From assembly GCA_913041085.1 (NCBI GenBank), contig CAJWHN010000002.1:3008-67007 (forward strand): 64,000 bases of DNA, in the 5' to 3' direction. The notes below the pieces were generated by a model. The model ran no database searches. It was not told the DNA's origin and saw only the letters and a program-made list of their open reading frames with translations. Source of the DNA: an uncultured Flavobacteriales bacterium. Lineage in GTDB: Bacteria; Bacteroidota; Bacteroidia; Flavobacteriales; UBA7312. Of the stretch, positions 1,293 through 60,867 are shown piece after piece (positions within the stretch are counted from its first letter, which is position 1; each line of letters opens with the position of its first letter). The translations under genes were made by a program, and so were the position numbers.

Positions 1293-3647
1293 ATGAAGCA
1301 TTTTTGGTCTTTGGCCTTGTTATTTACTGCATTTACATTTTTGAAATCTAAGGGACAGGAAATTAGTGGGCGTATTACGGATAAATTGACTAATGAAACA
1401 TTAATAGGCGTTAATATACTGCTCGATGGAAAGGGTATAGCATCGTCGGATTTTGACGGGAAGTTTAGCATTAGTACTACCAAAGGGAATCATGAGATGG
1501 TTTTTAAATTTATTGGCTACAAGCAAAAAAAAATAAATTTCACACTGTCAGCAGGAGAAAGTAAACAAATTGAAATAAAAATGAGCGAAGATGCTGAACT
1601 CATTGAAACGGTAGTTGTTTCGGCAGGAAAATTTGAACAACGTATTGAAGAAACCACCGTTTCTATTGAGGTAATTAAGCCAAATTTGATTTCTAATAAA
1701 AACACCACCAATATTCAAACTGCTATTGACCAAGTACCCGGTATAAATATCACCGATGGTCAAGCCAATATACGAGGTGGTAGTGGATGGAGTTATGGTG
1801 CTGGAACACGTGTACAGGTATTGGTTGATGATATGCCACTAATCTCAGGTGATGCTGGTCAGGCACAATGGAATTTGATATCTACTGAGAATATCAACCA
1901 AGTAGAAATTATTAAAGGAGCAACATCAGCTTTGTATGGCTCTTCGGCTTTAAATGGCGTTATCAATATTAGAACTGCTTACCCTAACGACAAACCAGAA
2001 ACTAAAATTAATTTTCATAACGGCAAATACGCTAACGCTAAGCGAAAAAGTTTGAACTGGTGGGGCTACAATAAAAGAAAAGTCTATGGCATGGATTTTT
2101 TACACAAACAAAAAATTGGCAATCTTGACCTTGTGTTAGGGGGTTTTTTCTTAGAAGATCAAGGGTATAGATATAAAGAGGTAACGTCTAGACAAAGAGT
2201 TAACTTCAACACCCGCTACAGGAATCCAAAAATAGAAGGTCTTTCCTATGGAATTAATGCTAATTTTTTGTTTAATGAAACCGCATCTGCGCTAATTTGG
2301 GAAAGTTATGAATCGGCATTTATCCCCCTAGATAGCTCTGTAACCAAGACTAGTGGAGATGTCTATAACATAGACCCATTCATAACTTATATAAACCCTA
2401 AAAGTGGAGACAAGCATAGATTAAGAACGCGTTACATGAAGGTAATAAATGATAATGAAACAAAAGATGACCCTGATGGACAAGACAATCAATCCACTAC
2501 ATATTATGCTGAATATCAATATCAAAAAAACCTTGAATCTCTTGGTATTAATTGGACTTCAGGTATAATGAATGAATATGTTGATGCTGTTGCTGACTTA
2601 TTTAATGGCACTAACTACAGACTTAATAATGCTGTGTTTACCCAATTGGATAAAAAATTAGGCAAAAGGATTAACCTATCTCTAGGTGCTAGATATGAGC
2701 AATTTATTCTGAAAACAAGTGAATTGTATGAAATAGCAGGCGACAGCATTAATTCATTCAAAGGGGCTAAACCTGTTTTTAGAGCAGGTATCAACTACCA
2801 ATTGGCAGAAGGCACTTTTTTGAGGTCGTCATGGGGGCAAGGCTATCGTTTTCCTAGTATTGCCGAACTATTTATAGAAACTGAGGTGACTAGCGGCATA
2901 TATGTTTATCAAAATCCTGAACTGAAGCCTGAGTCTGGCTGGAGTTCCGAACTTGCCATTAAACAAGGTTTTAAATTAGGTAATTGGGGTGGTTACCTAG
3001 ATATCGCCGGATTCATCATGGAATACGAAAATATGATGGAATTTAGCTTTGGTCAGTGGCAACCAACAACAGCCAATAGTTTAGGTATCGGCTTTAAGTC
3101 CATAAACATCGGAGACACTAGAATTTCTGGCATTGAATTTTCTTTAAGTGCTGGCGGTAAAGTAGGAAAAAATGAACTAACACTATTAGGAGGTTATACA
3201 TATATCGATGCGATTCCTCTAAATCCAGAAATCCCTTACGGAGAAGATATTAATGGCAACGAATTGAACTATTATAATACCAGCTCTTTGGATTCTAGCT
3301 CTCTATTTTTAAAATACAGACACAAGCACGTTGCCAAATTGGATATGGAATATAAAACGAAAAATTGGTCATTTGGAACGAGCTTTAGGTACAATAGCTT
3401 TATGCTAAATGTAGATAAAATATTCGTTGACCCATTCTTTGAAACTTTAGTACCCGGTATTCCTGAATCTAGAGAAAATCTAGCTGATGGTGATTTTATT
3501 GTAGATACTAGAATTATTTGTGAGTTAAACCAAACAACTTCACTATCTTTAATCATCAATAATTTATTCAATAGAGAATATCAGACTCGTCCAGCCAATA
3601 TGATGGCACCACGAACTGTATCACTCAAATTTGGTATTTCTATATGA
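1293..3647 (+). CDS. TonB-dependent outer-membrane receptor with N-terminal carboxypeptidase-regulatory-like domain
   Basis: 784 aa. Signal peptide MKHFWSLALLFTAFTFLKS. CarboxypepD_reg-like ISGRITDKLTNETLIGVNILLDG. Plug region VVVSAGKFEQRIEETTVSIEVI...IRGGSG. Long beta-barrel ending ...RTVSLKFGISI. Confidence 0.85.
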   Translation: MKHFWSLALLFTAFTFLKSKGQEISGRITDKLTNETLIGVNILLDGKGIASSDFDGKFSISTTKGNHEMVFKFIGYKQKKINFTLSAGESKQIEIKMSEDAELIETVVVSAGKFEQRIEETTVSIEVIKPNLISNKNTTNIQTAIDQVPGINITDGQANIRGGSGWSYGAGTRVQVLVDDMPLISGDAGQAQWNLISTENINQVEIIKGATSALYGSSALNGVINIRTAYPNDKPETKINFHNGKYANAKRKSLNWWGYNKRKVYGMDFLHKQKIGNLDLVLGGFFLEDQGYRYKEVTSRQRVNFNTRYRNPKIEGLSYGINANFLFNETASALIWESYESAFIPLDSSVTKTSGDVYNIDPFITYINPKSGDKHRLRTRYMKVINDNETKDDPDGQDNQSTTYYAEYQYQKNLESLGINWTSGIMNEYVDAVADLFNGTNYRLNNAVFTQLDKKLGKRINLSLGARYEQFILKTSELYEIAGDSINSFKGAKPVFRAGINYQLAEGTFLRSSWGQGYRFPSIAELFIETEVTSGIYVYQNPELKPESGWSSELAIKQGFKLGNWGGYLDIAGFIMEYENMMEFSFGQWQPTTANSLGIGFKSINIGDTRISGIEFSLSAGGKVGKNELTLLGGYTYIDAIPLNPEIPYGEDINGNELNYYNTSSLDSSSLFLKYRHKHVAKLDMEYKTKNWSFGTSFRYNSFMLNVDKIFVDPFFETLVPGIPESRENLADGDFIVDTRIICELNQTTSLSLIINNLFNREYQTRPANMMAPRTVSLKFGISI

Positions 3648-4363
3648 CAGTAATTGGCATTATACCTGCTCGCTACGATTCAAGTCGTTTTCCTGGAAAG
3701 CCCCTGAAAAACATTTTAGGTAAAAGTATGATACGCCGTGTGTATGAACAAGCTGAACAATCAGAATTAGAAAAGGTTATAGTTGCTACTGACGATCAAC
3801 GCATTGTAGATGAGGTCCTTTCCTTTAATGGAGAAGTTATGATGACCTCATCTGAGCATATAAGTGGTACCGATAGGTGTCTAGAAGTAGCCCAAAAGGT
3901 TGCTAATGTCAATGATATTATCATCAATATACAAGGTGACGAACCTTTTATAGAGCCCCAACAAATCAATCAGCTTATAGCAGCTTTTACCGACAAGGAA
4001 ATCGGTATAGTTACTTTATGCAAACGTATAGAAAAAGCAGACACACTAGTCGATAATAGTAAGCCAAAAGTCAAATTTGACGACAATAAAAAGGCTATTT
4101 CCTTTGATAGAGTGATGAATTCACCATTTGAAGACGGTGTTTTTTACAAACATATTGGCATCTATGCATACCGCTTCAATGTTTTAGAAAAAGTTTGTGC
4201 TCTAAAGCCTTCTTCTCTAGAAATTAAACATAAATTAGAACAATGGAGGTGGCTACAAAATGGATATGACATACTCGTTTTAGAAACACCCTTCGACTCC
4301 TATTCTGTAGATACTCCCGAAGATTTGAAAAAAATTATTGAAAGATTTGGGGACAGTAACTGA
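3644..4363 (+). CDS. kdsB: 3-deoxy-manno-octulosonate cytidylyltransferase (CMP-KDO synthetase)
   Basis: MTVIGIIPARYDSSRFPGKPL...IQGDEPFI motifs. ATGA overlap with the receptor stop at 3644-3647. Confidence 0.9.
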   Translation: MTVIGIIPARYDSSRFPGKPLKNILGKSMIRRVYEQAEQSELEKVIVATDDQRIVDEVLSFNGEVMMTSSEHISGTDRCLEVAQKVANVNDIIINIQGDEPFIEPQQINQLIAAFTDKEIGIVTLCKRIEKADTLVDNSKPKVKFDDNKKAISFDRVMNSPFEDGVFYKHIGIYAYRFNVLEKVCALKPSSLEIKHKLEQWRWLQNGYDILVLETPFDSYSVDTPEDLKKIIERFGDSN

Positions 4364-5369: not shown

Positions 5370-5879
5370 ATGTCTTCCAAAACACCTTTACAAAGTTTAG
5401 CCACTCTTACTGAGATGGTACTTCCTAACGACACCAACAATTTGGATAACCTTATGGGTGGTCGTCTTTTACATTGGATGGATATAGCTGCTGCCATATC
5501 TGCACACCGTCATTGTGGGCGAATTGTGGTTACAGCCTCTGTGAATAATGTATCTTTTGAAAAGCCTATCCCGAGAGCTAGTATTGTAACTCTTGAAGCT
5601 AAAGTTTCACGAGCTTTCAAATCCTCAATGGAAGTGTTTGTAGATGTATGGATGGAAAACCAAACAACTAAAGGACGTGTGAAGTGTAATGAGGCCATCT
5701 ACACCTTTGTAGCTGTTGACCAATTAGGCAATCCTATTTCTGTGCCATCTATCACAGCTGAGTCGGATTTGGAAAAAGACCGTTATGATGGGGCATTAAG
5801 AAGACGTCAATTGAGCTTAATCCTTTCTGGCAGACTAAAGCCAGAAGATGCTACTGAGCTGAAAGCCTTATTTACTTAA
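5370..5879 (+). CDS. Acyl-CoA thioesterase (hotdog fold)
   Basis: LPNDTNNLDNLMGGRLLHWMDIAAAISAHRH...VTASVNNVSFEKPI is typical of the YciA/acyl-CoA hydrolase family. Confidence 0.8.
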   Translation: MSSKTPLQSLATLTEMVLPNDTNNLDNLMGGRLLHWMDIAAAISAHRHCGRIVVTASVNNVSFEKPIPRASIVTLEAKVSRAFKSSMEVFVDVWMENQTTKGRVKCNEAIYTFVAVDQLGNPISVPSITAESDLEKDRYDGALRRRQLSLILSGRLKPEDATELKALFT

Positions 5880-6801
5880 TAGGACTTAAATCTATTTCTG
5901 TCATACATTTAAAATGTCCACGTGGGCATTTGGCATAGCCTATCTTAGAACAAGGACGACATCCTAAATCTTTATTTTCTACCATTACAGATGTAGGGTC
6001 AGGAAGGTAAGGCACCATACCAAAAGCTGGTGCTGTATTGCCCCAAACCGAATAGATTTTCTTTTTTAAAGCAGCCGATATGTGCATCATACCCGTATCG
6101 TGAGAGACCACAAAGTCAGCACCTTTAACTAAGAGAGCTGACTGAGTCAAAGAAAGTTTACCACAAGCATTTAGACCATGTGAGGTGGCTTTTATTATTT
6201 CTTCTCCCCTTTCGGCATCTTCTGGACCACCTACCAATACAAAAGGACGATTGAGCTGTTGACACAACTCAATAAGTTTATGAGTAGGCAAAATTTTGGT
6301 AGCATGCTGACCGCCAATTACTACAGCTACAAAAGATGTTTTCATTTGAAATTCCTGTGGTAAACTTTCTGTATCAGGAATAAAAAAGTCGAGGCCTTGC
6401 ATGTCGTTTTTTACGCCCAAATGCTCTACAGTCGCTACATTTCTATCTACCATATGAATAGAAGGCATGAGATTCCATTTAAAAGTCGTCAGCAAGAACT
6501 TTTTAATATTCAATTTGTCGACACTTTTAGAAGGCACTTTCAAAGCACGTTTGATTGCTAGGCTACGCATATTGTGGTGCAAATCCACAATTAGGTCAAA
6601 ATTCAGGGTTTTAAGTTTGTCCGTACCTTCTTCATAATGATGAATAACATCAATGTAAGGATTGTGAGATAGCCAAGAAGAAAAATTGCTTTTAGTTAAA
6701 AAATGAACCTCAGCACTGATTTGTTTTTTCAAGATTCTGACCACTGGCGAAGTCAGCACAATATCGCCAATAGAACTGAGTCGAATAACTAATATTTTCA
6801 T
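5872..6801 (-). CDS. Glycosyltransferase family 9 (LPS heptosyltransferase-like)
   Basis: MKILVIRLSSIGDIVLTSPVVRILK is the canonical GT9 N-terminus. I prefer the ATG at 6801 to the ORF-track GTG at 6813. Confidence 0.8.
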   Translation of the reverse strand: MKILVIRLSSIGDIVLTSPVVRILKKQISAEVHFLTKSNFSSWLSHNPYIDVIHHYEEGTDKLKTLNFDLIVDLHHNMRSLAIKRALKVPSKSVDKLNIKKFLLTTFKWNLMPSIHMVDRNVATVEHLGVKNDMQGLDFFIPDTESLPQEFQMKTSFVAVVIGGQHATKILPTHKLIELCQQLNRPFVLVGGPEDAERGEEIIKATSHGLNACGKLSLTQSALLVKGADFVVSHDTGMMHISAALKKKIYSVWGNTAPAFGMVPYLPDPTSVMVENKDLGCRPCSKIGYAKCPRGHFKCMTEIDLSPIK

Positions 6802-6837
6802 CGATTTTGACACCCTTCAAAGCTAAAGAAATTATCC

Positions 6838-15520: not shown

Positions 15521-15856
15521 TTACTTTAATAAATCTTCTATTTGTTGGGAGTAATCGACAGAATCGTCAAGGAAAAACTTCAGTTCGGGTACTTTGCGCA
15601 TTTGATTGCGTATGCGTTCCCCTAATTTTTTGCGAATAGCATAAGATTGCTGATTCATTTTAGCCAATAAAGCCTCTTTGTCTTCTGTGCCAAAAACACT
15701 GATGTATACTCTAGCGATTGATAAATCAGGCGAAATTCTAACCACCGTAACGGACACTAAAGAAGTGCCGATTAAGTCTCGTCCTTTGAGTTGCAATATT
15801 TCTGACAAATCCTTCAACAACTGCCTAGAAACTTTCTTCTGTCTTGTACTTTCCAT
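15521..15856 (-). CDS. rbfA: Ribosome-binding factor A
   Basis: 111 aa; ...VTVVRISPDLSIARVYISV... is the RbfA KH-like pattern. Confidence 0.9.
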   Translation of the reverse strand: MESTRQKKVSRQLLKDLSEILQLKGRDLIGTSLVSVTVVRISPDLSIARVYISVFGTEDKEALLAKMNQQSYAIRKKLGERIRNQMRKVPELKFFLDDSVDYSQQIEDLLK

Positions 15857-22342: not shown

Positions 22343-23239
22343 TTAGCCCCACAAAGGTGTAGGATAAACGCCCTTCTCAATTTGTTCGGCAATAGCCGCC
22401 ACCGCCATAGGCTTATCTTCTTTGTAAGTCACCCCAAACCAAGTGTCGGTAGTAGGAATAACCTTAACCACCATAGTCCCATCATTAATTTTATCGGTAA
22501 TAATATTCGGAATGTAGTACTCTGCCTTAGGGTCTTGAGCATTGACCTTCATAAAGGCATGAAATCCTTGTTCTATCTCAGCAAAAATAGAAGGGTGAAA
22601 ACCCCAATAATTCATAGATACACTGGCTTTAGGGTTAAGCTCTACGCCACCATCTTCGCCAACATTATATTCTACTTTACCGTCCACTTTGGCAATCTTG
22701 GTACGCTCAATGACTTCTATAAGGTGACCACTTTCATTGACTTCGCAAACTCCCCTATTCACTGTGCCGTGCTCCGATAGGGTATTGTCCAAAACATAGC
22801 CCAACATAGACATGACAGAAGGCGAACAGTCGTTTTGCAAAAAGTCCACCATTATCTTAAAGGAATTGTTACCGTAATAATCATCGGCATTTATCACCGC
22901 AAAAGGCTCATTGATAAATTCTTGAGCCACCAAAACAGCGTGAGAAGTGCCCCACGGTTTTTGTCTTTCTACCAAATCTACCCCCTCTAACTCTACTTGC
23001 ACAGGCTGATAGGCGTAGGCTATGTCTATCCTATCCTCAAACTTAGAAAAACGAGAGCGAAAAGCTTCATCAAACTCTTGGCGAATGACAAAAACTATCT
23101 TGCCAAAACCCGATTGAATAGCATCATAAATAGAGTATTCTATAATGGGTTCTTCATTGGGTCCTATACCATCGATTTGTTTGAGTCCACCGTAACGGCT
23201 ACCCATTCCTGCTGCTAAAATTAAAAGTGTTGGTTTCAT
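22343..23239 (-). CDS. Sugar-phosphate nucleotidyltransferase-family protein (substrate unknown)
   Basis: MKPTLLILAAGMGSRYGGLKQIDGIGP matches the G-x-G-t-R NTP-transferase N-terminal motif. Confidence 0.65.
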   Translation of the reverse strand: MKPTLLILAAGMGSRYGGLKQIDGIGPNEEPIIEYSIYDAIQSGFGKIVFVIRQEFDEAFRSRFSKFEDRIDIAYAYQPVQVELEGVDLVERQKPWGTSHAVLVAQEFINEPFAVINADDYYGNNSFKIMVDFLQNDCSPSVMSMLGYVLDNTLSEHGTVNRGVCEVNESGHLIEVIERTKIAKVDGKVEYNVGEDGGVELNPKASVSMNYWGFHPSIFAEIEQGFHAFMKVNAQDPKAEYYIPNIITDKINDGTMVVKVIPTTDTWFGVTYKEDKPMAVAAIAEQIEKGVYPTPLWG

Positions 23240-38175: not shown

Positions 38176-38850
38176 GTGAAACAATATATTATCATAGTTG
38201 CTGGGGGTAGCGGAAGCCGAATGGGTTCTACTATCCCTAAGCAGTTTTTAGACCTCAACTCTAAGCCCATTTTGATGCATACCATTGAAAAAATGCACCA
38301 AAGTTTAGACCATTCTGAAATCATATTAGCACTACCCAAATCTGAGTTCGACACTTGGAAAAAACTTTGTCAAGAACACCAATTTAAAGTAAATCATCAA
38401 GTTGTTGAAGGTGGCAACACACGCTTTGAATCGGTTAGTAATGCTTTGAAAAAAGTTAATGAACAATCTGTCATTGCCGTACACGACGGCGTTCGTCCCT
38501 TAGTTAAAAATAGCGTGGTGAATGAATGTATGCAGAGAGCACAAGAGAAAGGAACTGCAATTCCAGTCATAGCTATTGAGGAAAGCTTAAGGCAAAAAAC
38601 CGATAGTGGAAGTGTTGTTGTTAATAGAGACGAATACCTTATTGTTCAAACACCTCAATGTTTTAGCAGTGAGGTCTTGCTAAAAGCCTACCAACAAGAC
38701 TATTCGCCTACATTTACTGATGACGCTTCAGTAGTAGAAGCTATGGGAATAGAGATACAACTTATTCAAGGCAATAAAGAAAACATCAAAATCACAACAC
38801 CAGAAGACTTAAAGAAAGCTCAGGTTTATATCAATTTAATGTCAGAATAA
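38176..38850 (+). CDS. ispD: 2-C-methyl-D-erythritol 4-phosphate cytidylyltransferase
   Basis: IIIVAGGSGSRMG...HDGVRPL motifs. GTG start. Confidence 0.9.
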   Translation: MKQYIIIVAGGSGSRMGSTIPKQFLDLNSKPILMHTIEKMHQSLDHSEIILALPKSEFDTWKKLCQEHQFKVNHQVVEGGNTRFESVSNALKKVNEQSVIAVHDGVRPLVKNSVVNECMQRAQEKGTAIPVIAIEESLRQKTDSGSVVVNRDEYLIVQTPQCFSSEVLLKAYQQDYSPTFTDDASVVEAMGIEIQLIQGNKENIKITTPEDLKKAQVYINLMSE

Positions 38851-39975
38851 CATTTTAACTTGGCTATCTGATGATAACTTACCATCTACTATATGATTGA
38901 TGTAATTGATGCCAGGCATTTTACCTTTTTGAAAAGTCCCTAAAGCATCAAGTCCAAGGTATTCAGCACCGTTTTTGCATGCCCATTCCATCAATAGTTC
39001 CAAAGAAACATGAGCTTGTATCGTTTTCATTTCTTCCAAAATAGATAGGGTATCGTTAGACGCTAAACTATCTGTTCCAATCGTCATTTTAGCTTTAGCA
39101 TCTACAAACTGTTGGTAGTTAGGCAATTGATTTTCTATATATAAATTGGCTTTGGGGCAGGTACACCAATAAAGCTTATCGAAATTAGATATGGCTTCTG
39201 ACATATCTTCTTCTTTGGTAAAGGTATTATGCACTAATAAAATAGGAGATTCTGGTAATAAAGGAAGGGTGCTTTGAAGTGCAGTCTTACCAGTGTACTT
39301 GAAAAAGTCTTTGGCAATAAGTTGTGACAACAATTGACCACTACCCTTCAAAAACATAGTGTCTTCCTCAGGCGTTTCTTGACTGTGTATACTGATAATT
39401 TCTCCCTTATTGTGATGTCTAATCTTTTCGAAAAGTGGTAAAGAAACGGAATAGTTGGCGTGAGGTGTCAAAGAGTTGGGTGTGCTACATTCTTGGCTTA
39501 GTTTCAGCCCTCGTTCAAATACTTCTTCAGCTTTATGGGGGTTAGATGCAAATAATTCGATGAAGGTATAATAGTAAATGGCACTATTAGCTTTTGTAGA
39601 AAAAGAATCTGCTGTATTACTAATGTCTGCTACAGCCACAATGCCATTATTATACATCTGTCTGTCTGCTAACTTTAAGGCATCGTCTTTTCGTCGCTGA
39701 CTAGCCTTTCTAATTTGACCTATAGAGTTAATAAAATGAGGTAATCCTGATTTTGGGGCTAACTCTCCCTGCAAGTGTGACAACTCTAAATGACAATGGG
39801 TATTGATAAATCCGGGACAAAGAGCACCTTTAAAATATTCTAAATTAGCATTATCTATCTGCTGTTTATCATCTAGTAAATCTACAATTCTTCCCTCATC
39901 GTCAACGACCAAAACACCATCGTAAATGGGACTAGAAAAAGCCGTAAAAATGATATCTGATGTTAAGTAGCGCAT
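38842..39975 (-). CDS. Amidohydrolase-family protein (chlorohydrolase/deaminase-like; substrate unknown)
   Basis: PGFINTHCHLELS metal-binding HxH motif, ...GTDSLASN... C-terminal Asp motif. Confidence 0.7.
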   Translation of the reverse strand: MRYLTSDIIFTAFSSPIYDGVLVVDDEGRIVDLLDDKQQIDNANLEYFKGALCPGFINTHCHLELSHLQGELAPKSGLPHFINSIGQIRKASQRRKDDALKLADRQMYNNGIVAVADISNTADSFSTKANSAIYYYTFIELFASNPHKAEEVFERGLKLSQECSTPNSLTPHANYSVSLPLFEKIRHHNKGEIISIHSQETPEEDTMFLKGSGQLLSQLIAKDFFKYTGKTALQSTLPLLPESPILLVHNTFTKEEDMSEAISNFDKLYWCTCPKANLYIENQLPNYQQFVDAKAKMTIGTDSLASNDTLSILEEMKTIQAHVSLELLMEWACKNGAEYLGLDALGTFQKGKMPGINYINHIVDGKLSSDSQVKMLF

Positions 39976-40011
39976 AGAGCGTACAAAGATAGTATCTTTG
40001 TACGCTCTATG
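39973..40011. promoter_or_regulatory. Perfect 39-bp palindrome (19-bp arms, 1-nt centre) ending in the two divergent start codons; contains back-to-back TATCTTTG -7 boxes
   Basis: CATAGAGCGTACAAAGATA-g-TATCTTTGTACGCTCTATG. I checked the reverse complement by hand and only the centre base differs. The -7 boxes are at 39984-39991 (minus) and 39993-40000 (plus), each 8 nt from its ATG. Confidence 0.85.
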
Positions 40012-41058
40012 TCTTTAGATAAAAAAAATATTCGCACACTTACCTTAGAAGAACTTATGGACTTTTTCAAAGAGAATGATATGCCCACTTTTCGGGCCAA
40101 ACAAGTATACGAATGGCTATGGAAAAAGTCGGTATCCTCCTTTGAAGAGATGCGTAATGTTTCCAAAGAAACCATTCAATTGTTAGATGAGCACTTTGTT
40201 ATTCTACACGCCAAAATTACAGAATCACAAAAAAGTGCTGACCGCACCATAAAATCTGCTTTTGGCCTTTACGACAATAATAATGTTGAAGGGGTTTTAA
40301 TCCCTACCAAAAGTAGAATGACAGCTTGTATATCTTCTCAAGTAGGCTGTAGTCTAACATGTAAATTTTGTGCTACTGGCAAATTAGATAGACTGAGGAA
40401 TTTACATGCTGATGAGATTTACGACCAAATATTTATGCTAAACGAACAAGCCCTAAGCAATTACAATCAAAAGCTGAGCAATATTGTTTATATGGGTATG
40501 GGCGAACCCCTATTAAACTATAGAAATGTTCTAGAGTCTATTGATAAAATCACCTCAACAGACGGACTTGGCATGTCGCCCAAACGTATTACGGTATCTA
40601 CTGCTGGTATCGCAAAGCTGATAAAAAAGCTAGGCGACGACGAAGTCAAATTTAATCTGGCACTTTCCCTACACGCTGCAAATGACAAGAAGCGTGACTA
40701 TATCATGCCTATAAACGAACAGAACTCCTTAGAAGCATTAAAAGAAGCCATTGTCTATTTTTATGAAAAAACACAAACAAGAATAACCTACGAATACATC
40801 ATTTTCAAGGACTTCAATGATGAAATTAGCGATGCCCAAGAGCTGGCTAGCTTTGCAAAAATTACGCCTTGTAAAATCAATATTATTGAATATAACCCTA
40901 TTGACGATGGCGAATTTCAACAAGCTAAAAGAGAAAAAGTATATGCTTTTGTTAGTTATCTAGAAAGTAAAAACCTAATTGTAAATGTTAGGAGAAGTCG
41001 AGGTAAAGACATAGACGCCGCTTGCGGACAACTTGCCAATAAACTCGTAAAATCCTAG
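40009..41058 (+). CDS. rlmN: 23S rRNA (adenine2503-C2)/tRNA methyltransferase, radical SAM
   Basis: FRAKQVYEWLW N-terminus and radical-SAM motif CSLTCKFCATG. Confidence 0.95.
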   Translation: MSLDKKNIRTLTLEELMDFFKENDMPTFRAKQVYEWLWKKSVSSFEEMRNVSKETIQLLDEHFVILHAKITESQKSADRTIKSAFGLYDNNNVEGVLIPTKSRMTACISSQVGCSLTCKFCATGKLDRLRNLHADEIYDQIFMLNEQALSNYNQKLSNIVYMGMGEPLLNYRNVLESIDKITSTDGLGMSPKRITVSTAGIAKLIKKLGDDEVKFNLALSLHAANDKKRDYIMPINEQNSLEALKEAIVYFYEKTQTRITYEYIIFKDFNDEISDAQELASFAKITPCKINIIEYNPIDDGEFQQAKREKVYAFVSYLESKNLIVNVRRSRGKDIDAACGQLANKLVKS

Positions 41059-41087: not shown

Positions 41088-42062
41088 ATGAACACCATAA
41101 AAGAGATTAAAAAACCCATTCAACAAGAGATGCTCTTGTTTGAAAAGAAGTTTAAAGACTCCTTAAATAGCAAGGTTCCTCTTTTAGATAAAATATTACA
41201 CTATATCGTAAAACGTAAGGGTAAACAAATGCGTCCTATGTTTGTTTTTCTTAGTGGCAAACTTTTTGGTGAAATCAACGAAAGCAGTTTCAGAGCGGCC
41301 TCACTAATTGAACTTTTACACACAGCCACATTGGTACACGACGACGTTATTGATGATGCCAATATGCGAAGAGGGTTTTTCTCTATTAATGCCCTTTGGA
41401 AAAATAAAATTGCAGTACTTGTTGGAGATTACCTCTTGTCTAAAGGCTTACTAATGTCTTTAGAAAATGAAGAATACGATTTACTACAAATTGTTTCTAA
41501 AGCAGTCAAAGAAATGAGTGAAGGAGAGCTTTTACAAATAGAAAAAGCCCGTAAACTTGACATCAAAGAAGACGTATATTTTGAAATTATCAGACAAAAA
41601 ACAGCAACACTTATTGCGGCTTGCTGTGCTTGTGGTGCTATCACTGCCAAACAAGATAAAGAAACCGTCGAGCGTATGCGAAAATTTGGTGAGCTTATAG
41701 GTATCGCTTTTCAAATGAAAGATGATCTGTTTGACTACTACAATGAAGATGTTATTGGCAAACCTACAGGTATTGACATCAAAGAACAAAAGATGACTTT
41801 ACCTCTTATTTATACCTTAAGAAATTGCGATAGAAAACAAAAGAAGTTCATTATTCAAACTGTAAAAAATCACAACACCAATAGTGAGCGTGTTTCTAAG
41901 GTTTTAGAAATAGTTAAAAAAAGTGGTGGGATAAACTATACGATTGAGAAAATGAAAACCTACCAAGAAGAAGCCTTGCGTTTGTTGAAAACTTTTGATG
42001 ACAATGAAAGCCGAAAGTCTTTAGAACTTTTAGTAAATTTCGTCATCGAAAGAAAGAAATGA
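41088..42062 (+). CDS. ispB: Polyprenyl diphosphate synthase (octaprenyl-type)
   Basis: LVHDDVIDD (first DDxxD) and FQMKDDLFD (second DDxxD). Confidence 0.85.
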   Translation: MNTIKEIKKPIQQEMLLFEKKFKDSLNSKVPLLDKILHYIVKRKGKQMRPMFVFLSGKLFGEINESSFRAASLIELLHTATLVHDDVIDDANMRRGFFSINALWKNKIAVLVGDYLLSKGLLMSLENEEYDLLQIVSKAVKEMSEGELLQIEKARKLDIKEDVYFEIIRQKTATLIAACCACGAITAKQDKETVERMRKFGELIGIAFQMKDDLFDYYNEDVIGKPTGIDIKEQKMTLPLIYTLRNCDRKQKKFIIQTVKNHNTNSERVSKVLEIVKKSGGINYTIEKMKTYQEEALRLLKTFDDNESRKSLELLVNFVIERKK

Positions 42063-46730: not shown

Positions 46731-47399
46731 TTATTTCCCCTCTAATACTATCACAAATTCTCCTTTAGGTTCTTTGGTTTCAAAGTGAGCTAATACTACC
46801 GCAACACTTCCCCTAATTGTTTCTTCAAATTTCTTGCTAATTTCTCTAGAAACAGAAACATTTCTATCCTCTCCCATATATTCAACAAATTGCGCTAATG
46901 TTTTTTTAACCCTATATGGAGACTCATAAAATACCATCGTTTTGGTTTCTTCTGCCAAAATTTTTAAGCGAGTCTGTCTTCCTTTTTTCTGAGGTAAAAA
47001 GCCCTCAAAAACAAACTTTTCACAAGGTAGACCAGAATTAACAAGTGCAGGAACAAAAGCTGTAGCTCCAGGCAAACAATCTACCTTAATATCGTTTTTT
47101 ACACATTCCCTAACCAATAAAAAGCCAGGGTCAGAAATAGCTGGAGTTCCAGCGTCTGTAATTAATGCAATAGTTTTCCCATCTGACAAAAACTCAATCC
47201 ATTTCTCTACCGTTTTATGCTCATTATACATATGATGTGAACGCATAGGAGTAGATATTTGATAGTATGCCATTAATTTAGCACTAGTGCGTGTGTCTTC
47301 AGCTAAGATTAGGTCTACTTCTTCTAGTATACGAACTGCTCTGAAAGTAAAATCTTCTAGATTTCCAATAGGTGTGGGAACTACAAACAATTTTGCCAT
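46731..47399 (-). CDS. rsmI: 16S rRNA (cytidine1402-2'-O)-methyltransferase
   Basis: LFVVPTPIGNLEDFTFRAVRILEEVDLILAEDTR. Confidence 0.9.
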   Translation of the reverse strand: MAKLFVVPTPIGNLEDFTFRAVRILEEVDLILAEDTRTSAKLMAYYQISTPMRSHHMYNEHKTVEKWIEFLSDGKTIALITDAGTPAISDPGFLLVRECVKNDIKVDCLPGATAFVPALVNSGLPCEKFVFEGFLPQKKGRQTRLKILAEETKTMVFYESPYRVKKTLAQFVEYMGEDRNVSVSREISKKFEETIRGSVAVVLAHFETKEPKGEFVIVLEGK

Positions 47400-55279: not shown

Positions 55280-56458
55280 ATGTCAACAGATTTATTTCAA
55301 GCACCTGATTACTTTCAATTAGATGAGCTGCTAAATGACGAACACAAATTAGTTCGTGAAGCTGCTAGAGATTGGGTAAAGAGAGAAGTTTCGCCTATTA
55401 TTGAGGATAGCTGTCAGAAAGCGGAGTTTCCAAAACATCTTATTAGTGGTTTAGCTGATATTGGTGCCTTTGGGCCTTACATTCCAGCTGAATATGGTGG
55501 TGCTGGCTTAGACCAAATTTCTTATGGTCTAATAATGCAAGAATTGGAAAGAGGTGATAGTGGAATTCGCTCGACTGCCTCTGTTCAGTCATCTTTAGTG
55601 ATGTATCCTATTTTCAAGTATGGCAACGAAGAACAACGTCAGCGTTTTCTTCCTAAGCTAGCTAGTGGCGAAATGGTGGGTTGTTTTGGTCTTACTGAAC
55701 CTGATTTTGGGTCAAATCCAGCAGGAATGGTAACCAACTTTAAAGATATGGAAGACCATTACCTTCTTAATGGTGCCAAATTATGGATTTCTAATTCTCC
55801 CTTTGCTGACATCGCAATTGTCTGGGCAAAAAACGAACAAGGACGTATTAAAGGCTTGATTGTTGAAAGAGGTATGGAAGGTTTTACCACGCCAGAAACA
55901 CATAATAAATGGAGTTTAAGAGCTTCTGCAACAGGGGAATTGGTATTTGATAATGTGAAAGTACCTAAAGAAAATTTATTACCTAATAAAGATGGTCTTG
56001 GTGCACCGCTAGGTTGTTTGGATTCAGCACGTTATGGAATTGCATGGGGAACTATTGGTGCCGCTATGGATTGTTATGATACTGCTTTAAGGTATTCTAA
56101 GCAACGTATACAATTTGGCAAACCTATTGCAGGATTTCAATTACAACAGAAAAAATTAGCTGAAATGATTACTGAAATCACTAAAGCACAATTTATCACT
56201 TGGCGATTGGGTGTTCTTAGAAATGAAGGTAAAGCAACTACTGCACAAATTTCTATGTGTAAAAGAAACAATGTAGATATGGCATTGACTATAGCTAGAG
56301 ATGCTAGACAAATGCTAGGTGGTATGGGAATTACTGGTGAATACCCTATTATGCGTCATATGATGAATTTAGAATCGGTAGTGACTTATGAAGGAACACA
56401 CGATATTCATCTCTTAATCACGGGATTAGATATTACTGGAGAGAATGCTTTTAAGTAA
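55280..56458 (+). CDS. Acyl-CoA dehydrogenase (glutaryl-CoA dehydrogenase-like)
   Basis: 392 aa with FGLTEPDFGSNP...WISNSP...YEGTHDIH motifs. Confidence 0.85.
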   Translation: MSTDLFQAPDYFQLDELLNDEHKLVREAARDWVKREVSPIIEDSCQKAEFPKHLISGLADIGAFGPYIPAEYGGAGLDQISYGLIMQELERGDSGIRSTASVQSSLVMYPIFKYGNEEQRQRFLPKLASGEMVGCFGLTEPDFGSNPAGMVTNFKDMEDHYLLNGAKLWISNSPFADIAIVWAKNEQGRIKGLIVERGMEGFTTPETHNKWSLRASATGELVFDNVKVPKENLLPNKDGLGAPLGCLDSARYGIAWGTIGAAMDCYDTALRYSKQRIQFGKPIAGFQLQQKKLAEMITEITKAQFITWRLGVLRNEGKATTAQISMCKRNNVDMALTIARDARQMLGGMGITGEYPIMRHMMNLESVVTYEGTHDIHLLITGLDITGENAFK

Positions 56459-56479: not shown

Positions 56480-56511
56480 AAAAAAAGCTCGCTATTTGCG
56501 AGCTTTTTTTT
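56480..56511. terminator. Bidirectional rho-independent terminator between the convergent acyl-CoA dehydrogenase and nrdA
   Basis: AAAAAAAGCTCGC-TATTT-GCGAGCTTTTTTTT. A 7-bp stem is flanked by A7 and T8 runs. Confidence 0.8.
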
Positions 56512-56528: not shown

Positions 56529-58913
56529 TTATGAACCACAGGCAATACAATCATCAGGGTTTTCTATAGAACATGCTATAGCTTCCTCTGCTGTGTATTC
56601 TTCTTTGCCAGCAACAACTGGCTCTAGCTGAGACTTGGCTTGTTTTTGTACCGTAAACTGAATAGCTTGTGTAGCTGCTTTAGTTCTTAGGTAATACATA
56701 CCAGTCTTTAGACCTTTCTCCCAAGCATAGAAATGCATAGATGTGATTTTACCCATATTAGGTTGATCAATAAAGAGGTTCAAGGACTGAGATTGATCAA
56801 TAAAGTGACCTCTATCTGCCGACATATCAATGATATCTTTCATCTTAATTTCCCAAACAGTCTTGTAAATAGCTTTGATATTTTCAGGAATAGAATCAAT
56901 AGCTTGGATAGAACCATTAGCCTTTATGATTTCATTTTTCATTTCATCGTTCCACAACCCTAACTTTACTAGGTCAAGAAGCAGGTGCTTATTAACAACT
57001 ACAAACTCACCTGATAGTACACGACGTGTGTATATGTTTGAGGTATATGGCTCAAAGCATTCGTTGTTACCTAATATTTGAGAAGTTGAAGCCGTAGGCA
57101 TTGGCGCAAGTAGTAAACTATTACGTACACCGTGCTCTTTAATTTGTGTTCTGAGTTCACCCCATGCCCAACGACCACTTAGGTCATCATCTTTCTTGCC
57201 CCAAAGGTTGTGCTGGAATAAACCTTGAGAAATTGGCGAACCTTCATACGTTTGATAAGCCCCTTCTTCTTTGGCTGTTTCCATAGATGATGTTAGGGCA
57301 GCAAAGTAAATCGTCTCAAAAATTTCTTCGTTCAAGGCTTTAGCTTCGGCTGAGTCAAACGGTAAACGTAGCTTGATAAATGTATCGGCTAATCCTTGCA
57401 CACCTAAACCAACTGGTCTATGACGCATGTTAGAGTTTTTAGCTTCAGCAACAGGATAATAATTTCTATCAATTACCTTATTCAGATTTTTAGTAATTAC
57501 ACGTGTTATGTTGTATAATTTCTCGTGATCAAAAGTATTAGTCTCCTCGTTGATGTACATCGGCAAAGCAATAGATGCTAAATTACATACAGCCACTTCA
57601 TCTGGTGCTGTATACTCAATAATTTCAGTACATAAATTAGAAGAACGAATCGTACCTAAGTTTTTCTGATTAGATTTTTCGTTACAAGCGTCTTTGTACA
57701 ACATGTATGGTGTACCCGTTTCTACTTGAGATTCTATAACTTTTTCCCATAACTCACGAGCACGAATGGTCTTTCTTCCTTTACTTGCTTTCTCGTATTT
57801 TTTGTAGAGTTTTTCAAAATCTTTGCCATAACTATCGGCTAGACCTGGACACTCGTTTGGACACATTAAAGTCCATTCTGCATCTTCTTTGACACGTTGC
57901 ATAAACAAGTCTGGTGTCCATAGAGCAAAGAATAAATCTCTGGCTCTCATTTCTTCTTTACCATGGTTTTTTCTTAGGTCTAAGAACTCGAATACATCGG
58001 CGTGCCACGGCTCAAGATAAATAGCAAAAGAACCTTTTCTTTTACCACCGCCTTGGTCAACGTAACGTGCTGTATCATTGAATACTCTTAGCATGGGTAC
58101 AATACCGTTAGAAGTACCGTTTGTGCCTCTAATATACGAGCCTGTAGCTCTTACATTGTGAATGCTTAACCCTATACCACCAGCAGATTGTGATATCTTA
58201 GCACACTGCTTAAGGGTGTCATAAATACCATCGATACTATCATCTTTCATTGTCAATAAGAAACAAGAAGACATTTGTGGTTTTGGAGTACCAGCATTGA
58301 ATAATGTAGGCGTAGCATGAGTGAAGTATTTTTGTGACATCAGCTCATAAGTTTCAATAGCCGATTGAATATCTTCTTTGTGGATACCTATAGCTACACG
58401 CATTAGCATATGTTGTGGACGTTCTGCTATCTTGCCATTAAGACGAAGAAGATATGAACGTTCTAAAGTTTTGAAACCAAAATAGTCGTATCCGAAATCT
58501 CTGTCATAAATGATGGTAGAGTCTAAAAGTTCAGCATTTTTCTTTATGATTTTGATAACGTCGTCTGCAATAAGAGGAGCTTTTTTACCGGTCTTTGGAT
58601 TTACGAAATCGTACAAATCCTTCATTGTTTCTGAAAACGATTTTTTGGTATCCTTGTGAAGGTTTGATACTGAAATCCTAGATGCTAATAGTGCATAATC
58701 TGGGTGACGGGTAGTCATAGATGCCGATACTTCTGCCGCTAAATTATCCAGCTCTGATGTAGTAACACCTTCATAAATACCTTCAATAACTTTCATTGCT
58801 ACTGCGGTAGGGTCCACCAAATCGCTAAAGCCATAACATAACTTCTGAATACGGGCTGTAATTTTATCAAACTTTACAGCCTCTTTTCGCCCATCTCTTT
58901 TTAATACAAACAT
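56529..58913 (-). CDS. nrdA: Ribonucleoside-diphosphate reductase, alpha subunit (class Ia)
   Basis: 794 aa. N-terminal ATP-cone [16 protein letters not shown], active site SNLCTEI, C-terminal Cys pair CIACGS. Confidence 0.95.
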
Positions 58914-60294: not shown

Positions 60295-60867
60295 TTAATC
60301 CTTTTTTAACAAACGAGCCGCCTCGGACAATTGTTCAAACCACTCTACACCATAACTTCTAACAAGTGGTTCTTTCAAAAAACGGTAGACTGGGACTTGT
60401 AATTTTTGTCCACATTCACAGGCGGGTTGACATATGTCAATGGACTCATAATTAACGGCCTCAAAATCTCTGTACTTCTTCGTTCTTATCGGATAGAGGT
60501 GACAAGAGATGGGTTTTTTGAATTCTATTTTACCGTCATTATACGCTTGTTCGATGCTACATTTAGCTGTTCCGTCTTGGTCAAAAGAAACAAAGGCACA
60601 CTCTTTATTATTGACTAAAGCAGTCGTATTATCCCCATCAGCATCTACCACATACATTCCTTGTTGCTCTATAGCTGTTATGCCCTCTTGACGCATATAA
60701 GGTTTTACCTCATTAAAAATTTTAGAAAGAACATCAAGCTCATCGTCAGTTAGTGGAGCGCCACCATCGCCATCAACACAACAAGCTCCTTTACATGCTG
60801 ACAGATCACAAACAAATTGCTTTTCAAAAACATCAAAAGAAACAATTTTATCCTCCACCTGAACCAT
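60295..60867 (-). CDS. DUF3109-family Cys-rich protein
   Basis: MVQVEDKIVSFDVFEKQFVCDLSACKGACCVDGDGGAPL matches the DUF3109 N-terminal Cys cluster. Confidence 0.7.
   Translation of the reverse strand: MVQVEDKIVSFDVFEKQFVCDLSACKGACCVDGDGGAPLTDDELDVLSKIFNEVKPYMRQEGITAIEQQGMYVVDADGDNTTALVNNKECAFVSFDQDGTAKCSIEQAYNDGKIEFKKPISCHLYPIRTKKYRDFEAVNYESIDICQPACECGQKLQVPVYRFLKEPLVRSYGVEWFEQLSEAARLLKKD

Follow-up and report, generated by a model that had tools for sequence, protein, structure and literature searches.

The gene pair described here lies within the window, by which we mean the whole 64-kb stretch of DNA that was analysed, and its two members are transcribed away from each other. On the forward strand lies rlmN, whose product matches TIGR00048 at 377 bits (cut-off 290), while the reverse strand carries a gene for an Amidohydro_1 protein that shows weak similarity to the aminofutalosine deaminase family, with a score under the curated cut-off. 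The intergenic space between amidohydrolase and rlmN measures 33 nt and, together with both start codons, forms a perfect palindrome. The features discussed in the following are listed here, with the evidence for each in parentheses.

38842..39975, minus strand: Amidohydro_1 family gene, 377 aa (profile match)
39973..39975, minus strand: amidohydrolase start codon, CAT on the plus strand, outer end of the left arm (gene annotation)
39973..40011, no strand: perfect palindrome, 19-nt arms and one centre base (sequence; single-stranded DNA hairpin fold)
39976..39983, minus strand: ancestral 8-nt spacer TACGCTCT, from amidohydrolase box to ATG (similar 7-8 nt spacer in outgroups)
39984..39991, minus strand: putative amidohydrolase -7 box TATCTTTG, part of the ancient 17-bp core (TAnnTTTG/TAHHTTTG match; invariant in 12 lineages)
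39992..39992, no strand: centre base, G on the plus strand of the window, equal to C in the amidohydrolase sense (sole toggling position, G<->C only)
39993..40000, plus strand: putative rlmN -7 box TATCTTTG, part of the ancient 17-bp core (invariant in all lineages)
40001..40008, plus strand: 8-nt spacer TACGCTCT between rlmN box and ATG, derived state, inverted copy of the one at 39976..39983 (outgroups: CGCC, CATG or TGCC, 4 nt)
40009..40011, plus strand: rlmN start codon, outer end of the right arm, proposed template-switch return point through ATG/CAT microhomology (outgroups start at the same codon)
40009..41058, plus strand: rlmN, dual-specificity RNA methyltransferase, 349 aa (TIGR00048)

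The palindrome reads CATAGAGCGTACAAAGATA-g-TATCTTTGTACGCTCTATG, i.e., 39 bp made of two 19-nt arms that are 100% complementary and separated by 1 nt, and the pairing stops directly beyond its ends, where g at 39972 faces t at 40012. The first-pass annotation had reported this palindrome with its centre at 39992, the end of symmetry just outside both start codons, and the lack of comparable symmetry at the other divergent gene pairs of the window, and the sequence agrees on all these points. It is the longest short-loop palindrome of the window, the second-longest being a terminator-like hairpin with 13-nt arms, and the longest arm found in 30 dinucleotide shuffles was 8-11 nt, against the 19 nt observed. 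Folded as a single-stranded DNA hairpin, it reaches a computed -19.2 kcal/mol with z = -9. It had also been suggested to ask whether the arm is single-copy or belongs to a dispersed, REP-like element; within the 64-kb window the arm proved single-copy, its match with 3 mismatches at 22694-22712 falling within a coding region, and a search of the window for further copies of the arm or of the 17-bp core (up to 3 mismatches) returned chance-level matches inside coding regions only. Elsewhere, the identical 39-mer, or a version of it with 1-3 substitutions, occupies the orthologous site in 48 other loci from varied projects and assemblers, which rules out an assembly artefact, and some 50 independent assemblies, all from related marine Flavobacteriales that are uncultured, contain the palindrome. 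The 39-bp palindrome is real and far beyond chance.

Judging from its sequence, the palindrome most likely holds two abutting promoter boxes. Both arms present TATCTTTG, then 8 nt, then their own ATG, which confirms the earlier claim of a -7 box at this distance from each start codon. The -7 consensus of these bacteria is T-12 A-11 ... T-8 T-7 T-6 G-5, with the start site 4-5 nt past the box (PMC6847099), and the Bacteroidota consensus and box-to-start spacing are also supported by PMC9723704. The element TAnnTTTG (refined consensus TAHHTTTG, PMC6847099) is matched on both strands, at 39993-40000 (+) and 39984-39991 (-), and TATCTTTG is the commonest -7 variant in the window. As for the -33 TTTG/TTG element, no TTG occurs about 19-21 bp upstream of either box, where the expected positions are the first codons of the opposite gene. 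This absence carries little weight, because the -33 motif is weak in Flavobacterium anyway and hardly evident in F. johnsoniae (PMC6847099).

Eight other genes of the window have TAnnTTTG at exactly 4-5 nt upstream of their start codon, against about 0.09 expected, and at least 10 of its roughly 55 genes have a box-to-ATG geometry of the leaderless or near-leaderless kind. Given the 4-5 nt distance from box to start site, a box lying 4-8 nt ahead of its ATG implies leaders of 0-4 nt. At the palindrome, each -7 box would start transcription 4-5 nt downstream and so produce rlmN and amidohydrolase mRNAs with leaders of 3-4 nt; the same rule predicts the amidohydrolase start at about 39979/39978 (-) and the rlmN start at about 40005/40006 (+). 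The two polymerase binding sites would overlap almost fully, so that the two directions would be mutually exclusive at any moment. Of the three options offered by the first-pass annotation, a mirror-symmetric bidirectional core promoter with near-leaderless mRNAs is the one favoured, both by the invariance of the boxes across 12 lineages and by the common leaderless geometry of the eight other genes; the start sites are those that we infer from the spacing rule.

The comparison with other genomes covered 12 lineages, with amidohydrolase identities from 100% down to 53%, whose orthologues were retrieved by protein anchor and are thus unbiased with respect to the palindrome. It separates two layers. 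The old layer is the 17-bp core, CAAAGATA-N-TATCTTTG, which consists of two -7 boxes of the Bacteroidota sigma-A type, placed back to back; this core, with both boxes at the orthologous position, and the divergent gene pair itself are invariant in 12/12 lineages, down to 53% protein identity. The outer arms, of 11 nt each, are symmetric only within a clade of at least 77% identity. In the six outgroup lineages (L022-L028 and L059-L062) the rlmN spacer is 4 nt, which is the leaderless geometry of the eight other window genes, the amidohydrolase spacer is 7-8 nt, and the symmetry is confined to the core, with inverted-repeat arms of 8-9 bp versus 19 bp in the clade. On this comparison, the perfect 39-bp symmetry is shown to be the derived state of one clade, and only the 17-bp core is ancient. 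The proposal that orthologous intergenic regions should be palindromic is therefore borne out within that clade, whereas the outgroups are symmetric in the core only. Likewise, the earlier remark that a promoter would need less symmetry than this was right, but the excess would be explained by its origin, and not by an extra function, since the outer 11 nt are symmetric in a single clade.

Regarding this origin, the full symmetry looks like the product of one DNA-copying slip. In amidohydrolase orientation, the 4-nt spacer GGCG was replaced by AGAGCGTA, the reverse complement of TACGCTCT, with a match of 8/8 positions plus the centre base; read directly, the derived AGAGCGTA-CAAAGATA-C is the exact reverse complement of the ancestral G-TATCTTTG-TACGCTCT. 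The centre base reconstructed at the clade root is C, and all outgroups have G. The derived sequence, flipped centre base included, is obtained by a single template switch between the strands that returns at ATG/CAT. Such a switch would have occurred once during replication, primed on the 8-bp core arms and coming back at the ATG/CAT microhomology, and would have swapped the ancestral 4-nt spacer of rlmN for an inverted copy of the 8-nt amidohydrolase spacer, flipping the centre base in the same event. Template switching is known to homogenise or expand the arms of inverted repeats and to invert their spacers (PMC8604942; PMC13100816; PMC5941160; PMC7202029). A templated source was also sought for a 3-nt change in lineage L002, and no nearby donor sequence was found.

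After the origin of the symmetry, purifying selection on each promoter and leader would have kept both arms. Within the clade, the 38 non-centre positions together account for 5 Fitch steps, or 0.13 per site, versus 2.25 per site at 79 four-fold sites on the same tree, i.e., they change about 17 times more slowly. Frequent homogenisation of the arms (concerted evolution) was rejected as the cause of this conservation: no symmetric double substitutions were seen, and homogenisation cannot be frequent because asymmetric arm substitutions persist in well-sampled lineages, with 10-12 assemblies each. Given that asymmetric arms persist, centre changes in such lineages would need short switches.

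At the centre, we count six Fitch steps (five G<->C and one insertion), which exceeds each of the 79 four-fold sites and is an upper bound because recombination occurs in the clade (P0011, L014), the minimum being about three changes plus one insertion. None of the 79 four-fold sites is a C/G-only site, and G<->C makes up about 4.5% of the differences between close pairs. The G<->C changes at the centre (3-6 events, with the 1-nt spacer making inversion indistinguishable from transversion) all fall in the clade with 19-bp arms; outside the clade crown there are no centre changes across 1.51 substitutions per site of tree, the crown itself comprising 0.79. Lineages L017 and L018 differ at 5/3858 positions, and the centre is one of the five. 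This pattern fits inverted-repeat spacer inversion, in that 19-bp arms would render the 1-nt spacer prone to repeated inversion, visible as G<->C toggling. The presence of G at the centre across very divergent outgroups hints at some functional constraint, which lies outside the reach of the inversion model.

The state of the centre does not vary within any of three sets of 10 independent assemblies, which were built with different assemblers; it is thus inherited and no product of assembly noise. It is also set by the reads, because a k-mer (k >= 21) that spans one full arm, the centre and a single flanking base occurs only once. An assembler artefact at this base was rejected on the 10/10 agreement per set, and each of the two states recurs among independent assemblies (L018 and L019 versus L017); fast phase variation was rejected as well, the 10/10 assemblies being concordant per lineage. 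As for recombination, the P0011 lineage is a well-supported recombinant with its breakpoint 130-160 nt inside rlmN, and the L014 contig is a mosaic whose parent switch lies within a 68-bp invariant block containing the palindrome. A recombination hot spot at the palindrome is unsupported, as the a/b/a/b pattern of L014 resembles an assembly chimera and the P0011 breakpoint falls in rlmN.

The reading that we favour, with somewhat better than even confidence, is that of a compact bidirectional near-leaderless promoter that was made symmetric by templated mutation, whose arms were then kept by selection and whose centre is prone to inversion. Its account of the symmetry competes with ordinary insertion and substitutions in the rlmN spacer, the centre then being a G/C-only site that changes by plain transversions or through recombination shuffling. 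We give this competitor a low probability. A 1-nt inversion does look the same as a transversion, there is documented recombination in the clade, and the centre G conserved in outgroups suggests selection on that base; against this stand the 8/8 spacer match with the flipped centre (about 4^-8 by chance), the position of G<->C as the rarest substitution class here, and a number of centre steps higher than at any four-fold site, with the changes confined to the long-arm clade. Moreover, the centre would occupy position -13 of a promoter, where nine other promoters of the window carry T (6), A (2) or C (1); there is accordingly no need for G or C at -13, and T or A is preferred.

As to function, the first-pass annotation had listed two further options, neither of which gained support. 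One was an operator, in which the palindrome or its 17-bp core would be bound by a dimeric transcription factor co-regulating rlmN and amidohydrolase. Perfect dyad symmetry is what such a site would display, and every core position is invariant, including the 'nn' of both boxes and the centre in outgroups, which exceeds the strict need of a -7 box; yet a conserved 'nn' needs no special explanation when TATCTTTG is the prevailing variant in the window, and the 17-bp core, tested as an operator, is inseparable from the -7 boxes. The outer half-sites are unconserved beyond one clade, the 64 kb hold no second copy of core or arm bar the chance-level coding-region matches, and a regulator gene is adjacent in none of the examined loci. 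Typical operator half-sites are also much shorter than 19 bp, and we consider an operator unlikely. Rather less probable in our view is a cruciform that would be extruded under the negative supercoiling of divergent transcription and bury both -7 boxes, thus acting as a coupled negative-feedback switch. The perfect 19-bp arms, the AT-rich centre, the 1-nt spacer and the hairpin energy of the single strand (-19.2 kcal/mol) would all allow it, the arms were strongly conserved after their origin, and the toggling centre suggests that they pair in vivo, at least in replication; but many lineages carry 1-3 mismatches between their arms and persist, so perfect pairing is dispensable, 8-bp arms suffice in outgroups, and the role of each arm as promoter and leader accounts for its conservation. 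The remaining option placed the hairpin in RNA, where it would occlude the start codons in read-through transcripts, or serve in termination or insulation, and to it may be added a dispersed REP-like or mobile palindromic element. These we judge highly improbable. Co-transcription of both arms would give a stable stem, but the predicted starts lie inside the arms, so that neither mRNA would have both of them, and there is no co-directional upstream gene reading into the palindrome. The stem has no T-run, and scans for intrinsic terminators and for sigma-70 promoters do not flag it; instead of a GC-rich hairpin with a U-run at a gene 3' end, it sits between two 5' ends. A known RNA family was rejected because the Rfam search gave nothing near threshold, and a dispersed or mobile element because, besides being single-copy in the window, the palindrome has no match in viral contigs and always occupies the same orthologous site.

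The preferred promoter reading can be extended in a speculative direction, which we regard as a long shot: the expansion of the inverted repeat would have had functional effects, because the neighbour's leader, placed on rlmN, would give a formerly strictly leaderless mRNA the 3-4 nt 5' end of the amidohydrolase mRNA, and the new 39-bp palindrome would extrude as a cruciform under the negative supercoiling that divergent transcription produces. Both effects together would provide the clade with a new, coupled and self-limiting control of methyltransferase and amidohydrolase, and the flip-flop of the centre would be the footprint of arm pairing in vivo.

Among known systems, the closest are the prokaryotic bidirectional promoters described by Warman, Grainger et al. 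(bioRxiv 10.1101/2020.01.31.928960; NAR 2026, PMC12825309), which likewise have pseudo-symmetric core DNA that polymerase can use either way, and yield two divergent mRNAs from closely spaced starts, with one binding event excluding the other, as is predicted here. In E. coli, the symmetry of these promoters lies within the -10 hexamer, the -10 elements overlap and the starts are typically 18 bp apart (7-25 bp) (bioRxiv 10.1101/2020.01.31.928960; PMC12825309). In contrast, the -7 element TAnnTTTG is not self-symmetric, and the two boxes abut across a single nucleotide without overlapping; the predicted starts are about 26-28 bp apart, just beyond the 7-25 bp range, and both mRNAs are predicted to be near-leaderless. 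The locus would thus work like a member of this class but be built differently. No description of bidirectional promoters in Bacteroides was found in the literature searched.

The proposed origin also has precedents in inverted repeats produced by template switches. In yeast genes (PMC8604942), yeast promoters (including GRE2, PMC13100816), proteobacterial inverted repeats (PMC5941160) and the quasipalindrome hotspots of E. coli (PMC7202029), a short ancestral repeat likewise becomes a long perfect one by a multi-nucleotide change that matches the opposite arm in reverse complement; spacer inversion is part of these cases too, and it can coincide with arm conversion. Unlike them, the present case concerns a bacterial bidirectional promoter, in which the neighbour's initial transcribed region would have been copied up to the start codon, with a gain of 4 nt; its spacer is a single base, so that inversion is visible only as G<->C, and its mechanism is drawn from comparative data alone. 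With the leaderless or near-leaderless mRNAs of Bacteroidota, the locus would share a -7 box 4-5 nt from the start site. Such mRNAs have been described as rare in the species studied: leaderless mRNAs make up 5.5% in F. psychrophilum, mRNAs whose leader is shorter than 10 nt make up 3.7% in B. thetaiotaomicron, and in F. johnsoniae 87% have a leader longer than 10 nt. In this window, the geometry is found in at least 10 of about 55 genes.

The palindrome is most likely a tidy natural example of known mechanisms and not a new kind of element. If the favoured reading is true, a phylum that lacks a self-symmetric promoter element would still build a minimal bidirectional promoter, by abutting two -7 boxes in the 33 nt available to two genes. 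The locus would also provide a polarised natural bacterial case in which a replication template switch rewrote a promoter and its leader, with the ancestral and the derived states both extant. The centre base, G or C, would then be a simple readout of hairpin-mediated template switching in wild populations, one that could be scored in metagenomic reads. Finally, together with the many genes that have a box at 4 nt, the locus would suggest that streamlined marine Flavobacteriales use leaderless initiation far more often than do the Bacteroidota so far studied in culture.

The 39-bp palindrome at 39973-40011 reads CATAGAGCGTACAAAGATA-g-TATCTTTGTACGCTCTATG, i.e., two arms of 19 nt that are 100% complementary and have one base between them, and its two ends are the start codons of divergent genes:

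38842-39975, minus strand, amidohydrolase (Amidohydro_1), with its start codon as CAT at 39973-39975
start ATG at 40009-40011, plus strand, rlmN (TIGR00048, 377 bits against a cut-off of 290)

The symmetry stops there, as the flanking bases, g at 39972 and t at 40012, are not complementary, and the description in the first-pass annotation was confirmed in every detail (coordinates, arms, start codons, and unpaired flanks). The palindrome is a genuine feature that chance does not account for: no other short-loop palindrome of the window comes near it in length, the runner-up having arms of 13 nt (56480-56510), and the longest arm in 30 dinucleotide-preserving shuffles was 8-11 nt, compared with 19 nt. 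The arm has one copy within the window; a match with three mismatches at 22694-22712, inside the coding region 22343-23239 on the minus strand, was judged to be chance. The runner-up is a perfect 13-bp hairpin, AAAAAAAGCTCGC-tattt-GCGAGCTTTTTTT, with an A-run and a T-run on its flanks. It separates two convergent genes, 55280-56458 (plus strand) and 56529-58913 (minus strand), and has the look of a bidirectional intrinsic terminator.

The amidohydrolase is closest to the aminofutalosine deaminase family (102 bits, under the cut-off of 320), and some of its homologues of ∼46% identity carry the JGI name aminodeoxyfutalosine deaminase. It lies between ispD (38176-38850, plus strand), whose 3' end shares 9 nt with it, and a polyprenyl diphosphate synthase gene (41088-42062, plus strand); a quinone-related role is possible.

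Orthologous loci were retrieved from MAGs labelled as uncultured marine Flavobacteriales and from many marine metagenomes, using the amidohydrolase protein as the anchor, so that retrieval was blind to the palindrome itself. A homologue search yielded relatives grading from 95% down to 45% identity, and the contigs of chosen ones were then fetched, giving 49 complete loci of the close clade (amidohydrolase at least 77% identical, DNA identity 74-100%) and 11 loci of six more distant lineages (75, 62, 61, 59, 55, and 53% amidohydrolase identity), freshwater genomes among them. All these loci share the gene order truB, queA, ispD, amidohydrolase, divergent rlmN, and polyprenyl synthase; the 75%-identity lineage has an additional 307-aa gene without a Pfam match between amidohydrolase and ispD (L022:3131-4054). 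In six loci (L029, L030, L033-L035, and L056) rlmN is called as 354 or 359 aa, starting 5 or 10 codons upstream, through the palindrome, and these are probably mis-calls, given the conserved box-to-ATG geometry. One contig, Ga0209503_10000770 (L005:1-4), stops inside the palindrome, one base short of the amidohydrolase ATG, which suggests that assemblies sometimes break there.

Aligning the orthologous intergenic regions, as the first-pass annotation had proposed, separated two layers. Throughout the close clade the intergenic length is 33 nt and the 39-mer is nearly invariant, being perfect in 10 of 16 haplotypes and carrying 1-3 substitutions, all asymmetric, in the others. The six distant lineages have the divergent gene pair and an identical inner 17 bp, CAAAGATA-G-TATCTTTG, but no symmetry outside this core. 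Their rlmN spacer, from box to ATG, is only 4 nt long (CGCC, CATG, or TGCC on the rlmN sense strand), and their amidohydrolase spacer is 7-8 nt long (TACGCTCA, TACACTCT, CACGCTCT, TACCGAT, TACCGAA, or TACCTAT). By these comparisons, and the trees that go with them, the 17-bp core is ancient and the 39-bp symmetry is a derived character of one clade.

The derivation can be followed base for base. Read in the amidohydrolase orientation, the ancestral arrangement is CAT-GGCG-CAAAGATA-G-TATCTTTG-TACGCTCT-ATG and the derived one is CAT-AGAGCGTA-CAAAGATA-C-TATCTTTG-TACGCTCT-ATG, in which the altered stretch, AGAGCGTA-CAAAGATA-C, is the exact reverse complement of G-TATCTTTG-TACGCTCT. Exactly this sequence results from one template switch between the strands: the nascent strand would quit its template once the 8-bp core arm had been copied, copy the opposite strand across the centre and the spacer, and return at the ATG/CAT microhomology. 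Such a switch would explain both the additional 4 nt and the inverted centre base, and the symmetry would end at the two start codons because these are the sole complementary anchor, with protein-coding sequence beyond. By parsimony the centre at the clade root is C, while it is G in all six outgroups, in agreement with a single event that combined arm expansion and spacer inversion. Arm homogenisation or expansion, spacer inversion, and the two combined are documented (PMC8604942), and such template-switch events are on record for promoters (PMC13100816) and have been proposed to explain perfect inverted repeats of proteobacteria (PMC5941160); for this locus, we infer the mechanism from the comparative data. 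The first-pass annotation had held the symmetry to be far more than a promoter needs: the excess is real, but it is most simply explained by history, as the outcome of a single templated mutation within a compact bidirectional promoter, rather than by an added function.

Since then the arms appear to have been held in place. On a tree of the 16 close-clade haplotypes, the 38 non-centre positions took 5 parsimony steps in total (0.13 per site), as against 2.25 steps per site at 79 four-fold-degenerate sites of the adjacent gene, so the arms are strongly constrained. The asymmetric substitutions persist: a T-to-C change at arm position 10 is shared by five haplotypes in over 20 assemblies, the others being a G-to-A change at position 32 and a 3-nt change in L002. 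No symmetric double change was seen among these haplotypes; both observations contradict frequent conversion between the arms and argue that each arm is kept by selection on its own promoter and leader. One lineage has three adjacent substitutions, GCG to ATT, in the rlmN-side arm (L002:2966-2968), for which a search within the locus turned up no templating donor.

The centre base behaves differently, with six parsimony steps (five between G and C and one insertion), whereas the 79 four-fold sites reach at most 5 and include none restricted to C and G; G-C exchanges make up only ∼4.5% of the differences between close pairs. L017 and L018 show five differences in 3858 positions, one of them at the centre, and an independent assembly, L019, agrees with L018. 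The insertion, in a single assembly (L009, ∼740-781), gives CAAAGATA-CG-TATCTTTG, an even-length palindrome core. In three groups of ten independent assemblies, each group encoding one protein, the centre never varies inside a group; it is therefore heritable, and assembler noise and rapid phase variation are ruled out. At the corresponding position, -13, the window's other promoters carry T, A, or C, and a G or C there is therefore no requirement. Outside the clade crown there were no centre changes over 1.51 substitutions per site, about twice the tree inside it (0.79), and the strict G of the outgroups hints at a constraint on the centre that this model would not account for. Spacer inversion in inverted repeats is reported to recur, to be reversible, and to occur only where the arms exceed 9 bp (PMC8604942), and the pattern would be the one it predicts, although a 1-nt inversion looks the same as a transversion. 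Because there is recombination in the clade, six changes are an upper bound, the minimum being about three plus the insertion. Taken together, the history after symmetrising is most simply one of purifying selection on both copies, with occasional flips of the centre.

The recombination is seen in the P0011 lineage (L039-L048, ten independent assemblies), whose rlmN is mostly window-like (98.4%) and which, past a breakpoint 130-160 nt inside rlmN (∼L039:1010-1039), is L004-like (98%), amidohydrolase included; homologous recombination thus occurs between lineages 90-95% identical. Another locus, L014:954-4801, is a mosaic in which rlmN and queA are ∼98% window-like, while amidohydrolase and ispD (2030-3722) equal L015 across 386 consecutive informative sites. 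Its left switch point is in a 68-bp invariant block that contains the palindrome. The alternation of parents (a/b/a/b) suggests that the assembly joined co-occurring populations into a chimera; the alternative is a real recombinant.

Each half of the core reads as a promoter element, as TATCTTTG matches the Bacteroidota sigma-A -7 element, T-12 A-11 n n T-8 T-7 T-6 G-5, from which transcription begins 4-5 nt downstream (PMC6847099; PMC9723704). Eight other genes of the window have their start codon exactly 4-5 nt downstream of a TAnnTTTG box, against ∼0.09 expected from the box frequency:

5872-6813, minus strand, gene with such a box
6851 (start), plus strand, gene with such a box
15521-15856, minus strand, gene with such a box
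15913 (start), plus strand, gene with such a box
20044 (start), plus strand, gene with such a box
46731-47399, minus strand, gene with such a box
60295-60867, minus strand, gene with such a box
60926 (start), plus strand, gene with such a box

Three divergent pairs have this leaderless geometry on both sides, and promoters that would put the transcript start at or beside the AUG therefore appear routine in this organism. Leaderless mRNAs are reported as rare in cultured Bacteroidota (4-6%), and the window's share, as read from the geometry, would be far above this. The ancestral 4-nt rlmN spacer has the same geometry, in independent support of the annotated rlmN start codon. For the two window genes, the 8-nt spacers would give leaders of 3-4 nt, with predicted starts at ∼40005/40006 (plus strand) and ∼39979/39978 (minus strand).

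Among the readings proposed in the first-pass annotation, a mirror-symmetric bidirectional core promoter is thus the best supported by the sequence data. Since the boxes are 1 nt apart, the footprints of two polymerases would overlap almost entirely, following the logic of E. coli bidirectional promoters, where one binding orientation shuts out the other. The build differs, however, as the -10 elements overlap in E. coli while the boxes here abut, TAnnTTTG is not self-symmetric, and the predicted starts are ∼26-28 bp apart instead of 18 bp. Back-to-back boxes also occur at other divergent pairs of the window, but at least 12 nt apart.

An operator for a dimeric regulator, also put forward initially, would suit the 17-bp core, which is conserved at every position; it is nevertheless improbable, as TATCTTTG is simply the favoured -7 variant of this genome, the outer half-sites are restricted to one clade, the 64-kb window holds no second site, and no locus examined has an adjacent regulator gene. 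Even less probable, if attractive, is a supercoiling-driven cruciform burying both boxes: the palindrome folds as single-stranded DNA at -19.2 kcal/mol, but lineages with mismatched arms thrive. The RNA form of the hairpin, occluding the start codons in a read-through transcript, is unlikely, given that neither predicted transcript contains both arms, nothing reads co-directionally into the palindrome, no U-run follows the stem, and Rfam gives no match. A REP-like or mobile element is contradicted by the single copy within the window and the constant orthologous position across loci; the arm was also absent from viral contigs.

The ingredients of the predicted bidirectional promoter are each of a known kind, and their combination is new: abutting Bacteroidota -7 boxes serving two genes predicted to be near-leaderless, together with a polarised inverted-repeat expansion that would have copied the leader of one gene onto its neighbour and a 1-nt flip-flop at the centre.
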